Source: Planctomycetota bacterium | GTDB lineage: Bacteria > Planctomycetota > UBA1135 > UBA2386 | DNA length: 64,000 nucleotides | Direction of reading: 5' to 3' | NCBI GenBank assembly: GCA_046290465.1 | Contig: JBKAGP010000001.1 | Span: 1,568,001 to 1,632,000 of the forward strand | Shown here: positions 51,301 through 59,183 of the stretch, in pieces | How the letters are laid out: each line of letters starts with the position of its first letter | How positions within the stretch are numbered: position 1 is the first letter of the stretch | Notes under the pieces: model-generated | Database searches by the model: none | What the model was told of the DNA's origin: nothing | The model's input: the letters and a program-made list of their open reading frames with translations, nothing else | Position numbers and translations under genes: made by a program

Positions 51301-51333
51301 TGGTAGCGGGGATGGGTGGTGATTTGAGTCGGG
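51301..51333. other. att junction (core + element arm)
   Basis: TGGTAGCGGGGA-TGGGTGGTGATTTGAGTCGGG. Confidence 0.8.
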
Positions 51334-51396
51334 TGGTAAGGTGGGATCATTTGCGCTGGACAGCCTGAGCTGTGAGACCGGCGCCACCGCACAGCA

Positions 51397-51927
51397 TCAA
51401 GTTGGTGGACGAACGGAATCAGAGACCGCACGTACCGTCATGTACCACCCGTTTAGCAGAAGCCCTCGCACCCAATGGACTAGAGCCATTCGCTTGCGAG
51501 CCTTCACTGCATGAGCAGCCACCTCAGGATCGCTATCCTGCGTTGCAACCGACTTCTGAGGGCACGCTTGGGTGTCACCAGCATCCGCTGGACCTTCGGT
51601 TTCACGGGCTCCCTCGGAACGCGAGGTAGATTCAACACCTTCACTGGCCGAGTCGGATTCACTCGACTCTGCCTGCTCATCGAGCGCTTCGTCCACAGCC
51701 TCGTGAACATCCGTCTCTAACTGCTCGTCAGGCGATAACGATTCTTCGGCATCAGCCCGCGTATGGACATGCTTCTGGACGATGTAGATGTGCGAAGCAT
51801 CGTCGAACGAATCTGCAACTTGCTCCAGAAGGCGACTGTTGTCACCAGGATCTCTAGACGTCAGAACCAGAGTGATTCGACGATTTTTCCTCGTTCGGCG
51901 ACGAGGCCTTTGCGGCTGCTCACTCAT
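51397..51927 (-). CDS. hypothetical protein (acidic middle)
   Basis: 176 aa; ATGA overlap with upstream ORF. Confidence 0.5.
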   Translation of the reverse strand: MSEQPQRPRRRTRKNRRITLVLTSRDPGDNSRLLEQVADSFDDASHIYIVQKHVHTRADAEESLSPDEQLETDVHEAVDEALDEQAESSESDSASEGVESTSRSEGARETEGPADAGDTQACPQKSVATQDSDPEVAAHAVKARKRMALVHWVRGLLLNGWYMTVRAVSDSVRPPT

Positions 51928-52715
51928 CGTTTGACTCCCCGGGGAGAGCCCGCCTGGCTTTCTGAGTCGATTCGCCTCACACGAAGACCACTTCCTCCTG
52001 CAGCACGATGATAGGCGTCTGCGCGCCTTGTCATCTCAACGATAGCCTGACGCACTTCGTCGTCGGACAAGCCGTCCGGGACCTGCATCTCAAGCACTAG
52101 CTCATCGCCAAACTCCTCCGACTCCTCTAGGACAAGATCTAGCTCAGACTCCGGCCAGCCCTCCGGTCGAACCAACGGCCACAGATCGCCTAGGGCTTTC
52201 ACGGGTGCAGTGTCCACACCCCAACCACACGCACCATGAATCTGTCGGGCTGCGGCGATGTCGGCTTGCATCGTCTGGCGAATCGCCGCAGCAGCATCAC
52301 GCGAAGCGGCCCATGCGAAAGCAGCCTCCTCGGCGGCCACACCAACCGCCCTGAGCTGTGCCTCGATCTCGGACCGATTCCTGCCATAGCTGTCCCCGGC
52401 GCACAACTTGATAGCGCGGGCAGCTGCTTCAGCGGCCCTTCCGATAGAGGCGTCACGAATAACGCCAGTCCAATGGCCTGCATCAACCGGGGCGCGGAGC
52501 TTCTTGCGCAGTTGATAAGCACGGCTAATCGCCTGCTCAGCGGCCTCTGGGCCCGGATCGGCGCAGTAGCGCAAGCAAGACTCAAGCACGCCCGATGCAA
52601 GACTACGTACGCCTTGCGAATCAGCGAGTGACAACAGACGCATCACGCATCTCGTCGCAACGGCGACGACGCCCATTGCGGGAACCGACCCTAGGTCTTT
52701 GTACATGAACCCCAT
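51924..52715 (-). CDS. hypothetical Ala-rich helical protein
   Basis: 263 aa; atypical codon usage; start uncertain. Confidence 0.55.
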   Translation of the reverse strand: MGFMYKDLGSVPAMGVVAVATRCVMRLLSLADSQGVRSLASGVLESCLRYCADPGPEAAEQAISRAYQLRKKLRAPVDAGHWTGVIRDASIGRAAEAAARAIKLCAGDSYGRNRSEIEAQLRAVGVAAEEAAFAWAASRDAAAAIRQTMQADIAAARQIHGACGWGVDTAPVKALGDLWPLVRPEGWPESELDLVLEESEEFGDELVLEMQVPDGLSDDEVRQAIVEMTRRADAYHRAAGGSGLRVRRIDSESQAGSPRGVKR

Positions 52716-56352: not shown

Positions 56353-56376
56353 ACCCCCCTCTGCTAACAGGGGGGT
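56353..56376 (+). promoter_or_regulatory. oriT/dso nic hairpin (MOBT type)
   Basis: ACCCCCCT-CTGCTAAC-AGGGGGGT, 6 nt before the Rep_trans ATG. Confidence 0.75.
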
Positions 56377-56382
56377 TGAAAC

Positions 56383-57441
56383 ATGATCGCCACAGAACGG
56401 GGCGACGGCGGATTCGAGGATCTCGGGCTCACCCAGATCCGCATCTCGCTCGACGCGCTCACGGTTTCGCTCACCGAGTCCGAGGTCAGCGAGATGTTCG
56501 GCAAGATGATCGAGGCCGTCAGACGAACGGGATGCAACACCCTGCCAACGATGGGGCGGCCCTGGCGCGACTTCCGCAAGACGCAGCGCTACGGGCTCTC
56601 GACGCTCAACGAAGGCGCGCAGTGGTACCGCAAGTACGATCCGCAGCAGCTCGCGCCCACCCTCGGCAGCGACTACGAGTCCTGGGAGGTCATGGGCCCC
56701 GCAGCGCGCATCCTCGCCGACGTGCTGAAGTCGGCGCCCGTGCATGTCGGGCGCGCTTCACGCCTCGACGTCGCATTCGACTTCGCGTGCGAACCTGACC
56801 TGTGGCCCGCCGCAATCGAGGACGCGATCTCCTTCCACTGCGAGCACCACGGCTTCCACATCCACTACCAGGGCGAACGGGAGAAGCGCACCGTCTACGT
56901 CGGCTCGCCCAAGTCGGAGCGGCGCGTTCGCATCTACCGGCACGACCTCGCGCACGGTGGCGGCCTCCCGATCCTGCGCGTGGAGGTAGAACTCCGGCGC
57001 AAACACGCGGCCGAAGCCTGGAGACGTTGGTGGCCGGGCGGCGGACCAGCCATCGGCCTCTGCGCGGGTCACATCGAGCAGATGACCGGACGCGCCGTCT
57101 TCGTGGACGAACTCACCTACCCCGCGCCCGCCCCTGGCCGCGACGTCGATCTGATCGAGACCTCGGCACACGGCACCACCCAGTACGGAGGCGCCTTCGA
57201 GGCCCTTCTCCGCGCGGGCGTCGATCTGACCGCCCTCGTCCGCGACGTGCGCGAGCTGCAGCTCTCGGCGAGCGGAAAGCGGGTCCGTGAGCACAAGATG
57301 CGGCGCCTGCTCGCATCCGTTCGCGGCCTCACGCCCGAGCAGATCGCCTCAGCGATCCTGGGCTCGATCCGCGCGCGCATCCGCCAGCGCTTGCCATCCA
57401 ATCCGACCGGACCTAGCGTCCGGCCCGGAGACCCTGCATGA
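56383..57441 (+). CDS. Rep_trans (replication initiation factor) / MOBT relaxase
   Basis: SRLDVAFD, TVYVGSPKSERRVRIY, RVEVEL motifs. Confidence 0.85.
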   Translation: MIATERGDGGFEDLGLTQIRISLDALTVSLTESEVSEMFGKMIEAVRRTGCNTLPTMGRPWRDFRKTQRYGLSTLNEGAQWYRKYDPQQLAPTLGSDYESWEVMGPAARILADVLKSAPVHVGRASRLDVAFDFACEPDLWPAAIEDAISFHCEHHGFHIHYQGEREKRTVYVGSPKSERRVRIYRHDLAHGGGLPILRVEVELRRKHAAEAWRRWWPGGGPAIGLCAGHIEQMTGRAVFVDELTYPAPAPGRDVDLIETSAHGTTQYGGAFEALLRAGVDLTALVRDVRELQLSASGKRVREHKMRRLLASVRGLTPEQIASAILGSIRARIRQRLPSNPTGPSVRPGDPA

Positions 57442-59183
57442 CCAAGGCCATCGGATACGTCCGGCGATCCACCGACCGCCAAGAGGAGTCGCTCGCGCAG
57501 CAGCGCGCCCGCCTCGCCGAGTTCGCCAGGTCGCGCGACTGGCAGCTCGCTGACGTATTCGAGGACGACGCGATCAGCGGGAGCGAGATGAAGCGACCCG
57601 GGCTCGACAAGCTGCTGCACGCGGCCAGCCAACCGGACGTCGACGTCGTGCTCGTCTGGGATCGCAACCGCCTCGCGCGGCCCAAGGACGCCATCGACGG
57701 CATGCTGCTGGAGCGGCAGCTGCAGAGCAACGGCAAGCGCGTCGTCTACGCATCGACCGGCCAGGAGCCGGACCGTTCGTTCACCTCCGGCCTGATCAGC
57801 TTCGTCGAGCACCACCAGAACGGCGACTACCTGCGCAAGCTGAGCCGCGACACCATGCGGGGCACGGTCGATCGCGCGCGCCGTGGCCTGTGGCCCGGTG
57901 GGCCGATCCCGTTCGGCTTCGATCGGCTGCTGATGGACGGCGACCAGCCCAAGCGCATCGTTCGCCAGGACGACGAAGGCGGGCAGATCGTACTCGACGC
58001 CGTGACCGGCGCCGAACTGGACCGCCTCCCCCGCGGCCGCTGGCACAAGAAGCAGAAGCACGAGTCCTCGAGCCTGACCCCATCGACGGACGCGCGCGTC
58101 CGCGCCGTGCAGAAGCTCTTTCGCGACTACGCAGCCGGAGCACCGACGCGCAAGCTACGCGACGAGCTCAACGCGTCCGGCATGCGCACGTCACGCGGCC
58201 AGATCTTCACCCCGCAGACCATCGGCCCGATGCTGGAGAACCCGGCCTACGTCGGCCGCTGCGTCTACAACCGACGGACGCTCAGCAAGTGGCACCGCTT
58301 CGAAGAAGGCGCCAGCGTCGAACGCCACGACGAGGGCGTCGAGAAGCGCTCCGAGGACGACTGGATCGTCTGCGAGAACGCGTGGCCGTCGCTGATCGAC
58401 GTCGAGACGTTCGAAGCCGTGCAGGCGCGGCGCAAGCTGTCGCGCGAGGGCAAGCTCCCCCACTACCGCGGCAACGCGATGAAGAGCGAGTACCTGCTCA
58501 GCGGCCTGATGAGGTGCGGCGTCTGCGGCGGCAAGATGACCGGCAACACGCAGAAGAGCGGCAAGGGCTACAAGACGCGCTACTACATGTGCACGCGGCG
58601 CCATGCGGGCTACCACGACGAGTGCCCGAAGCGCTACCAGGTGCCCGCCAAGCACGTCGAGGAGCAGATCCTCGCGACGATCCGCGAGGACCTCGGCGGC
58701 CTGCGCGACGACCAGGTGCTACACCGACAGGTCGAGCAGCAGCTCTCCGCGCTCCGATCCGGCACCGCGGACACCCGGCAGCTCCTGCGCACCCGCCTCG
58801 CGTCGCTCGACGAGCAGATCGCGCGCGTTCGCGAGCACGTGCTCGCCGTGGACCGGGACGTCGCCGAGTCGCTCGGGCTCTACCGCCAAGCCAAGCAGCT
58901 CGCGGCCGAACGCGACCAGGTGCAAGGCGAACTCAGCGCCGCAGGGCCCGAACCGCAGCTCCCGCCGCTGCCCGAACTGCGCCAGCGCATCGCGGCCGAG
59001 TTCGACCAGATGGAGGCGCTGCTCGCCTCGGGCACCCTCGAAGAGCGCCGCGCGCTGGTCGGGTGCTACGTCGCCCAGATAAAGACAAAGCCCGAAGAGG
59101 AAACCGTTTGTGTCGGATTCCTCTCCGGGCTGAGTCAAATGGTAGCGGGGACAGGATTCGAACCTGTGACCTTCGGGTTATGA
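57438..59183 (+). CDS. large serine recombinase
   Basis: GYVRRST..QE.S, D.AISG...RPGL, WDRNRLAR, recombinase domain, Zn ribbon CGVCG...YMC...C, coiled coil. Confidence 0.95.
   Translation: MTKAIGYVRRSTDRQEESLAQQRARLAEFARSRDWQLADVFEDDAISGSEMKRPGLDKLLHAASQPDVDVVLVWDRNRLARPKDAIDGMLLERQLQSNGKRVVYASTGQEPDRSFTSGLISFVEHHQNGDYLRKLSRDTMRGTVDRARRGLWPGGPIPFGFDRLLMDGDQPKRIVRQDDEGGQIVLDAVTGAELDRLPRGRWHKKQKHESSSLTPSTDARVRAVQKLFRDYAAGAPTRKLRDELNASGMRTSRGQIFTPQTIGPMLENPAYVGRCVYNRRTLSKWHRFEEGASVERHDEGVEKRSEDDWIVCENAWPSLIDVETFEAVQARRKLSREGKLPHYRGNAMKSEYLLSGLMRCGVCGGKMTGNTQKSGKGYKTRYYMCTRRHAGYHDECPKRYQVPAKHVEEQILATIREDLGGLRDDQVLHRQVEQQLSALRSGTADTRQLLRTRLASLDEQIARVREHVLAVDRDVAESLGLYRQAKQLAAERDQVQGELSAAGPEPQLPPLPELRQRIAAEFDQMEALLASGTLEERRALVGCYVAQIKTKPEEETVCVGFLSGLSQMVAGTGFEPVTFGL

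Follow-up and report, generated by a model that had tools for sequence, protein, structure and literature searches.

A large serine recombinase of Planctomycetota with its predicted attachment site inside its own coding end and a probable circle-only C-terminal tail

Recombinase gene, tRNA target, and attachment sites

We describe here an integrative element that lies at a tRNA-Met gene in a 64,000-nt stretch of DNA from a Planctomycetota bacterium (GenBank assembly GCA_046290465.1, contig JBKAGP010000001.1, forward-strand positions 1,568,001 to 1,632,000; hereafter the window, in which all positions are counted), together with the recombinase that this element encodes. The open reading frame (ORF) at 57438-59183 on the plus strand encodes 581 amino acids, in which Pfam profiles detect a resolvase domain (PF00239, 3e-23, residues 4-150), a recombinase domain (PF07508, 9.1e-20), and a zinc ribbon (PF13408, 2.6e-16), and the protein is therefore a large serine recombinase (LSR). 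The N-terminal catalytic domain with the serine nucleophile is present; S11, R9, and Q15 as well as the zinc-ribbon cysteines C360, C363, C385, and C396 are invariant across 44 homologues. In the AlphaFold2 models of two homologous proteins, P0061 and P0098, a coiled-coil insertion in the zinc ribbon is formed by long helices (residues ~405-546 and ~424-563, respectively; predicted local distance difference test score, pLDDT, mostly 78-91) between the zinc-ribbon strands, and the C-terminus is placed just past the two zinc-ribbon strands that come last, after the coiled coil. The region after the coiled coil and the last zinc-ribbon strands governs directionality in the LSR family. When relatives of this LSR were searched for in the 60 nearest genomes, the best match was only 35% identical.

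As the original prediction had stated, the recombinase ORF runs through the core of an attachment (att) site into an antisense tRNA gene, and its C-terminus reads ...LSGLSQMVAG-TGFEPVTFGL*, in which the ten residues after the hyphen, hereafter the integrated-state tail, are encoded at 59151-59180 and the stop codon lies at 59181-59183. All of the Pfam domains (residues 4-416) and the coiled coil remain in this single ORF after integration. The tRNA in question is tRNA-Met(CAU), encoded at 59140-59216 on the minus strand; it is the sole tRNA that was found in the window by ARAGORN, and the 6.59-Mb genome contains one full-length match to it, that is, a single full copy. A C1xU72 mismatch and three G:C pairs adjoining the anticodon loop are present in this tRNA, both of which are initiator hallmarks, and tRNA-Met(CAU) hence looks like an initiator. 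The last 11 codons of the LSR gene, including the stop codon, are antisense to tRNA-Met(cat). The codons for V-A-G overlie the acceptor 3' strand of the tRNA, the next ten are antisense to the T arm and the anticodon stem, and the TGA stop codon sits in the complement of the anticodon loop.

At this right end of the element (attR; 59125-59151, plus strand), the P arm TGAGTCAAAT encodes L-S-Q-M, and the adjoining core doubles as the V-A-G codons and as the restored acceptor 3' strand of the tRNA. A second copy of the core, corresponding to the displaced acceptor 3' strand plus CCA, is located at 51301-51312 on the plus strand in the outer attL. This 12-nt direct repeat, TGGTAGCGGGGA, has exactly two exact copies in the window (51301-51312 and 59140-59151), and the number of matches expected there by chance, even with up to 1 mismatch, is 0.12. 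Immediately to the left of the outer core is the B arm (51284-51300, plus strand; gttggcgaaccaacgac), i.e., the native host flank just past the tRNA's 3' end. The same flank was found as gttggcgaaccaacaag to abut an intact tRNA-Met gene at unoccupied sites in two genomes of the same genus, G013 (locus L115) and G002 (locus L118), and it is also present at the contig start of the related locus L067; the gene to the right of tRNA-Met has orthologues throughout the genus. Since the flank left of the core at 51301 is the one that lies beside the intact tRNA at the empty attB of G013 and G002, the left arm at this position (arm 1) is composed of the B arm, the core, and the P' arm and is a true attL; the earlier view of arm 1 as a relic is thus not borne out. 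The native flank surviving left of the core is only ~17 nt long, and the far flank of the relatives' empty site gave no match in the window or in the genome. In terms of a tRNA-targeting island, therefore, the locus has the 12-nt repeat at its far border, an intact tRNA gene at its near border, and an empty attB in the relatives G013 and G002.

Two left arms continue the reading frame of the recombinase. Arm 1 (51312-51368, plus strand), with the P' half-site motif ATTTGAGTC at 51322-51330, extends the LSR frame by 18 codons to give the tail MGGDLSRVVRWDHLRWTA and a stop codon at 51366-51368, and the inner, attL-like arm 2 (52900-52961, plus strand), with a 9-nt core TAGCGGGGA and the P' motif ACTTGAGTC, extends it by 17 codons to give the tail MDGDLSRARYRRIAWTP and a stop codon at 52959-52961. 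Both of these readings had been proposed before and are confirmed here, and it also holds that the two arms differ at 3 of 30 nt, with two of the differences synonymous (GGT/GGC and GAT/GAC) and one changing G to D. The shared 30-nt arm motif occurs in the window only at 51304-51333 and 52900-52929 (0 expected), and the rest of the 6.59-Mb genome contains a single match with 2 mismatches and nothing more.

The original prediction had further described inverted arms, TGAGTCAAAT-N20-ATTTGAGTCG, in the reconstructed attP. These are indeed centred on the GA at which the sequence ceases to be identical to the tRNA, but the repeat is imperfect, being complementary at 8 of 10 positions. In the window and in 12 related loci, the P arm (with AGTCAAA) and the P' arm (with TTTGA(C/G)T) are symmetric around the last dinucleotide in common with the tRNA (GA in the window, GG in the other loci), and it is from this symmetry and the limit of identity that we place the crossover. 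The symmetry would be as expected of a serine-recombinase crossover. Because the P-arm motif corresponds to the LSR codons L-S-Q and the P'-arm motif to the tail codons D-L-S, the attachment site is coding on both sides; as read from the DNA, attP lies inside the 3' end of the LSR's own gene.

Which of the two arms is the partner of attR can be considered from their surroundings. The span to attR is 7.84 kb from arm 1 and 6.24 kb from arm 2. Arm 1 is closer than arm 2 to the arm of L067; the arm 1 region is 79% identical to the L067 arm in blastn, and the similarity stops 4 nt past the stop codon. Arm 2, on the other hand, directly precedes the cargo genes, which is the usual layout of P', cargo, and backbone in this family. 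In both of the window arms, the core and the P' motif are retained along with a tail that shows the conserved features described below, and attR could have either of them (51301 or 52900) as its partner. Had the integration been a simple tandem one, a P arm would be expected left of arm 2, but none is seen there; the 20 nt in that place (52880-52899, plus strand; tttggcggacccagcttcgc, repeat family D1) form a scar that resembles, by eye, the native B arm and also the filler after the first core of L067. Arm 2 could have originated from accretion followed by deletion, or from attL capture.

Also, we noticed that L067, the closest relative, contains two att cores 61 nt apart within its positions 1-145. 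The first core is preceded by the native B arm and by a degenerate P'-like sequence (GCTTCGACTCA), and the second is followed by a functional-looking P' arm; judging from its sequence, this double core looks like the scar of an earlier, nearly wholly deleted element.

The excised-state tail in the recombinase family

A protein search gave 205 relatives of the LSR, of which 120 were listed, and 64 of those 120 end in [AT]GxGFEPxx[SF]GL, the antisense reading of tRNA-Met. The source names of the relatives, where given, are Phycisphaerae and other Planctomycetota, and the family is, on these sequences, Planctomycetota-wide. DNA around the relatives was fetched for 46 genome loci, 33 metagenome loci, and 2 viral loci, and in 43 of the 59 loci with a readable C-terminus, the LSR runs into an antisense tRNA. 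When attL was sought solely as a direct repeat (9 nt or longer, 4.5 kb or more upstream) of the tRNA end or by the symmetry between the locus's own P arm and a candidate P' arm, it was recovered in 13 of these 43 tRNA-tailed loci; among the remaining 30, 14 have less than 5.1 kb of upstream DNA and 16 showed none within 6-10 kb.

Fourteen distinct arms were compared in the recombinase frame: namely, the two arms of the window and those of L067, L022, L073, L068, L026, L072, L027 (= L071), L029, L038, L048, L043, and L060. In 13 of the 14, the LSR frame stays open for 16-22 codons with a frame-0 stop at codons 17-23, which in shuffles of the same DNA happens in 11-14% of cases (expectation, 0.13 per arm). 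Tail position 16 is Tyr or Trp in 13 of the arms, while arm 2, which is one codon shorter, has Trp at position 15; position 14 is hydrophobic in all of the arms, and position 17 is mostly Arg, Lys, Gln, or Thr. The column entropies at codon positions 1, 2, and 3 of the tail are 1.32, 1.26, and 1.54, respectively, and the third position is thus the most variable. In four independent pairs of arms, furthermore, the ratio of nonsynonymous to synonymous differences (pN/pS) over codons 8-17, which lie outside the P' half-site, is 0.46 in the LSR frame (Fisher p = 0.002; ~0.29 after Jukes-Cantor correction) as opposed to 0.88 and 2.59 in the other two frames, and this frame-specific signal persists down to 50% identity of the LSR. 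Beyond the stop codon, the identity over 60 nt falls to the level of shuffles (0.43-0.53) in all six pairs compared, whereas that of the tails is 0.55-0.77.

The closest relative illustrates the same pattern. The LSR of L067 is 83% identical to that of the window and has the same host flank, and its tail, TGGDLARVIRWDQVRWSA*, is equal in length to the tail of arm 1; in our own reading, the two tails differ by seven replacements, all of them conservative, and by three more codons that differ only synonymously. The earlier proposal that a peptide made only from the excised circle is under selection is therefore upheld by the frame-specific pN/pS of the aligned left arms, the conserved stop window, the aromatic residue at position 16, and the end of similarity at the stop codon. 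Taken together as sequence comparisons, these observations support peptide-level purifying selection on the excised-state tail.

Some natural sequences carry such tails. In the tandem relic L048, the decayed C-terminus of an LSR is in frame through a natural P-core-P' junction into ...DISEINKPFDMEYFVYR*, and three full-length database proteins, P0098, P0064, and P0045, all encoded on contigs of 4-13 kb, have the related tails ...VEVFDNTKALIQLDIVYRRE, ...VDFDKGITIPQTLLVCRIS, and ...VGVDPNREFRVQCLCCKW, respectively. A second class of tails, ...AFWxx[FW]..AA*, was found in P0059, P0061, P0081, and L059, and its sequences probably represent excised-state tails as well. The locus L059 is followed by a plasmid RepA gene and lacks any tRNA within 10 kb; we rejected it as a clean attP, given its partial inverted repeat, unequal spacing, and frameshifted LSR. 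A search for natural attP junctions by DNA pattern gave none in viral_contigs and none in 401 sampled genomes of the phylum.

Several side observations were made on the integrated forms. The two residues flanking GFEP in the integrated-state tail xGFEPx, which are encoded by the tRNA's two complementary T-stem strands, covary among P0001-P0120 (A..A, V..T, G..P, T..V, and E..P). In a subgroup composed of L032, L034, L063, L069, L070, L081, and L100, the LSR frame diverges right after ...AATAG, before the core GCGGGG, and enters a sequence like the host flank usually seen on the opposite side of the element (CGCAACCGT...); in this subgroup, the 10 kb downstream contain no tRNA-Met gene. In L079/L092, L094, L099, L057, and L055, the LSR enters a tRNA 3' half that breaks off at the anticodon loop, beyond which the DNA is unrelated, and a complete tRNA-Met lies 4-5 kb further on in L079/L092 and L055. 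The sequence of the L079/L092-type junctions suggests a later insertion of another element that crossed over in the anticodon loop. Also, L093 and L094 are two LSR copies ~18 kb apart with the same tRNA-coded tail on one 704-kb metagenome contig, which is likely, from this arrangement, to be a multi-element array.

Exchange of the tail and its possible roles

The locus is probably an integrative element of 6.2-7.8 kb that occupies the 3' end of a single-copy tRNA-Met(CAU) gene, with attP inside the end of the recombinase gene and a conserved tail that is made only from the circle. In the free circle, the LSR gene would end in a tail of 16-22 residues beginning with x-G-[FG]-D-L-S, the translation of the P' half-site, and continuing to a hydrophobic position 14, a Tyr or Trp as residue 16, and, usually, a basic or polar residue 17 before the stop codon. 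There, the P arm would encode ...L-S-Q-M and the core TAGCGGGG V-A-G, with the P' arm carrying the frame onward; upon integration, the same core would also supply the acceptor 3' strand of the tRNA. Strand exchange would occur at the GA/GG dinucleotide, at the junction of the acceptor and the T stem, and would shift the DNA that codes for the tail to the element's far end (attL), leaving the integrated gene to end in ten antisense-tRNA codons (xGFEPxx[S/F]GL) with a stop codon from the complement of the anticodon loop. The central claim of the original prediction, i.e., that integration swaps the C-terminus of the LSR, is hence supported.

With regard to what the exchange does to the enzyme, a tentative guess is that the tailed form is the integration-proficient enzyme and that the tRNA-tailed form is attenuated or changed in directionality. 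If the two isoforms differ in this way, the swap of the tail would serve as a built-in record of the state of the element. The broader proposition, in which a family of LSRs rewrites its own C-terminus by recombination and the circle tail sets direction or competence, so that directionality is achieved without or alongside a recombination directionality factor (RDF), is more doubtful.

There are several points that weigh against this account of the locus. More distant relatives of the LSR (L052, L056, L047, and L091) end 3-8 residues past the conserved LFSxI motif, which means that an LSR can fold without the tail. Few positions in the tail are conserved overall, the L060 arm has no stop codon within 32 codons, and the counts across the arms are not independent of each other, the arms being homologous. 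The AlphaFold2 models give the tail no confident position: that of P0061 has a pLDDT of 34-48, and in that of P0098, a strand is predicted at residues 603-608, over an alternating hydrophobic part, at a pLDDT of only ~50. Joints of attP and attB were not found in 3 runs of read data, all of which consist of assembled contigs that drop rare forms; in the one run that covers the locus, a single unitig of 8240 nt (50958-59197) crosses 51301 unbranched and is uninformative on such forms. Finally, two conserved backbone ORFs, at 55293-56054 and 55961-56386, could supply a conventional RDF, and directionality therefore need not depend on the tail. The earlier statement that no separate RDF gene is evident is accordingly not upheld: the backbone of these elements holds conserved proteins of ~250-330 and ~120-140 amino acids without assigned function, and a conventional RDF may be among the two unnamed ORFs. 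RDFs are described as sharing no common sequence family (10.1101/2024.08.21.608926).

Among the alternatives to a role in directionality, a stability tag is somewhat less likely still: the circle form of the LSR would be degraded or stabilised via its C-terminus, and integration would remove the tag. Consistent with such a tag, 5 of the 13 stop-bearing arms end in -A (RWTA, RWSA, YRSA, YRTA, and YRVA), and all four tails of the AFW class end in -AA; also, the work on mycobacteriophage BPs describes C-terminal degradation tags on both Int and Rep, with attP inside rep (PMC3694055). The extreme C-terminus is, however, the least conserved part of the tail, where the endings also include YRQ, YRT, LVLK, KAAG, QSY, VYR, FRY, and WTP, and the best-kept positions, 14 and 16, sit 1-7 residues inside the C-terminus.

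Alternatively, the tail might be needed for any activity of the enzyme; in that case, an integrated copy would lack activity, and the element could be excised only by the tailed LSR of an incoming relative, a partial suicide similar to that of the archaeal SSV integrases, a precedent described in a review (PMC8371274). Arrays and relic arms are indeed common at this site, as seen in the two arms of the window, the double core of L067, the tandem relic L048, and L093/L094. This alternative is nonetheless unlikely, given that the integrated LSR genes are overwhelmingly intact, with 64 proteins of ~580 amino acids among the 120 listed bearing the tRNA-coded tail, and that the distant relatives do without any tail region.

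It is even less probable that the conservation past the P' half-site reflects a constraint at the DNA level, such as an extended site for the recombinase or Rep, a promoter, or a terminator of the circle, with the peptide being incidental. Codons 4-6 (D-L-S) do mirror the DNA half-site GATTTGAGTC, an inverted repeat of the P arm, and codon 16 always begins with T (entropy 0.0). Against this, the third codon positions are the most variable, pN/pS is below 1 in the LSR frame alone, Arg is kept through switches between CGN and AGR and Tyr/Trp through TAY and TGG, and the type of stop codon varies (TGA, TAA, and TAG) while its window does not. No conserved structure was found either, in that no consistent hairpin or other structure emerged behind the conservation of the tail (z of -1.5 to +1.8). 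Furthermore, codon 16 lies 46-48 nt from the crossover, whereas the att half-sites of LSRs are ~20-25 bp long. That the arms are decayed att scars with a meaningless open frame is hardly credible: open frames of ~18 codons are common in G+C-rich DNA, and shuffles put a stop in the observed window at 0.11-0.14 per arm, but the stop falls in this window in 13 of the 14 arms, including those from elements of 50-56% G+C, residues are kept at fixed positions, and the substitution pattern is frame-specific.

Cargo, surroundings, and relation to known systems

Between the two arms are two ORFs on the minus strand, 51397-51927 and 51924-52715, neither of which has a Pfam or PHROG match; the former has one weak PADLOC match only (PD-T4-6, E 0.005), and no tblastn match to either was found in the related loci. 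Arm 2 is followed on the plus strand by a co-oriented block at 53156-55115, namely an oligonucleotide cyclase (from ATG 53156 to 54175; PADLOC PDLC00777, 6.9e-115; Pfam SMODS, 1.2e-06), an E2-like protein (54172-54615; PDLC00867, 6.6e-42), and a one-transmembrane (1TM) effector (54537-55115; PDLC00666, 7.8e-22). From these profile matches, the cargo is identified as an operon of the cyclic oligonucleotide-based antiphage signalling system (CBASS) with a CD-NTase cyclase, an E2-like accessory protein, and an adjacent effector.

The backbone genes lie between this cargo and the LSR gene, all on the plus strand. Protein A (55293-56054) has 31 tblastn hits in related loci, ~2 kb upstream of the LSR, and nothing named was matched to it in Pfam, PHROGs, a PDB profile search, or the ESM Atlas. 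The next ORF (55961-56386), of 141 amino acids and low complexity, is a candidate accessory factor; it is 48% identical to its counterpart in L067 (E 3e-22), and its helix-like motif R(I/L)LxxLxxRR(I/L) is common to L022, L026, and L073. A putative rolling-circle replication initiator is encoded at 56383-57441, the stop codon of which overlaps the start of the LSR gene. Its match to Rep_trans is weak (PF02486, 9.1e-06; 25.9 bits, under the cut-off of 29.6 bits), and its match to phrog_453 (replication initiation) is at 1e-3; Rep_trans is likewise matched by the proteins that fill this slot in L029 and L022. This slot upstream of the LSR is occupied by at least two mutually unrelated proteins of 350-500 amino acids (one in L022, L026, and L029 and another in L067, L073, and L038), and the window protein matches neither type by BLAST, sharing the weak Rep_trans matches with the L022/L029 type. 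From these comparisons, the replication module appears to be exchangeable between elements. The related elements, 5.7-9.1 kb in size (10.8 kb in the tandem case L048), have a backbone of protein A, the small ORF, the LSR, and a Rep-like protein, of which there are at least two unrelated types; variable cargo adjoins attL and includes restriction-modification systems and an aldehyde dehydrogenase/TetR module.

In the surrounding host region, an N6_N4 DNA methylase gene (49481-50191, minus strand) and a 118-aa ORF with a Phage_int_SAM domain only (50908-51264) lie left of the native flank, and these genes (49481-51264) may, from their domains, be the remains of another mobile element at the same tRNA. 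Further to the left, 20900-46750 on the plus strand is a long co-oriented cluster of a phage-tail-like or extracellular contractile injection system (CIS), with sheath, T4-type baseplate, CIS tube, VgrG-like OB domain, Baseplate_J, DUF6519, and VWA proteins, which is followed by a sigma-54 activator gene (46822-47931). The G+C content of this cluster is 0.61-0.72, compared with 0.70-0.75 in the outer parts of the window (1-12000 and 59001-64000).

The LSR of this element shares with the canonical large serine integrases (phiC31, Bxb1, and A118/LI) the domain order of resolvase, recombinase, and zinc ribbon with a long coiled coil, and its predicted att sites are likewise short and simple, with imperfect inverted repeats around a putative central dinucleotide. 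In those canonical systems, attP lies outside the int ORF, the targets are mostly protein-coding genes and not tRNAs, and directionality is set by a separate RDF protein. In the literature that we searched, which did not extend to subscription journals and supplements, no serine recombinase with attP in its own coding end or with a state-specific conserved tail was found.

A close parallel is the integration-dependent immunity of the mycobacteriophages BPs, Brujita, and Charlie, where attP likewise lies in an ORF, the C-termini differ between the free and the integrated form, and integration acts as a switch (PMC3694055). As described there, however, it is the repressor gene that is remodelled, by a tyrosine integrase, and experiments have shown the removed segment to be a degradation tag (PMC3694055), whereas here it is the serine recombinase itself that is remodelled. 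The archaeal SSV-type integrases (SSV1, pTN3, and pT26-2) are similar in having the att site in their own gene, a compact int-att module, and tRNA targets, but they are tyrosine recombinases, the gene of which is split into two inactive halves, and such suicidal recombinases are placed only in archaea in this 2021 review (PMC8371274). The present element, by contrast, resides in a bacterium and encodes a serine recombinase, of whose gene only the final 16-22 codons give way to 10 tRNA-templated ones, with the catalytic and DNA-binding domains left intact. Like tRNA-targeting islands and tycheposons, the element targets a tRNA 3' end, and the tRNA is restored by a direct repeat; it is also small and carries replication genes and defence cargo, with tandem accretion at one tRNA. 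Nearly all such islands, among them 910 of 937 in the tycheposon report (10.1101/2020.12.28.424599), use tyrosine recombinases, and unlike in those elements, the tRNA-restoring segment here itself codes for the recombinase. The principle of an att site inside the recombinase gene is thereby extended to bacteria and to serine recombinases.

In genome engineering, large serine integrases are prized as unidirectional enzymes, the reversal of which needs a separate and hard-to-find RDF. Re-tailing of the enzyme by integration, together with a selected tail that is made only from the circle, suggests a compact and self-contained coupling of enzyme properties to the integration state. These results define a widespread Planctomycetota family of integrative elements of 6-9 kb that carry defence genes, in which a coding sequence doubles as the acceptor arm of a single-copy, initiator-like tRNA. 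If the proposed coupling is true, the recombinase of these elements would "know" whether its own gene is free or integrated.

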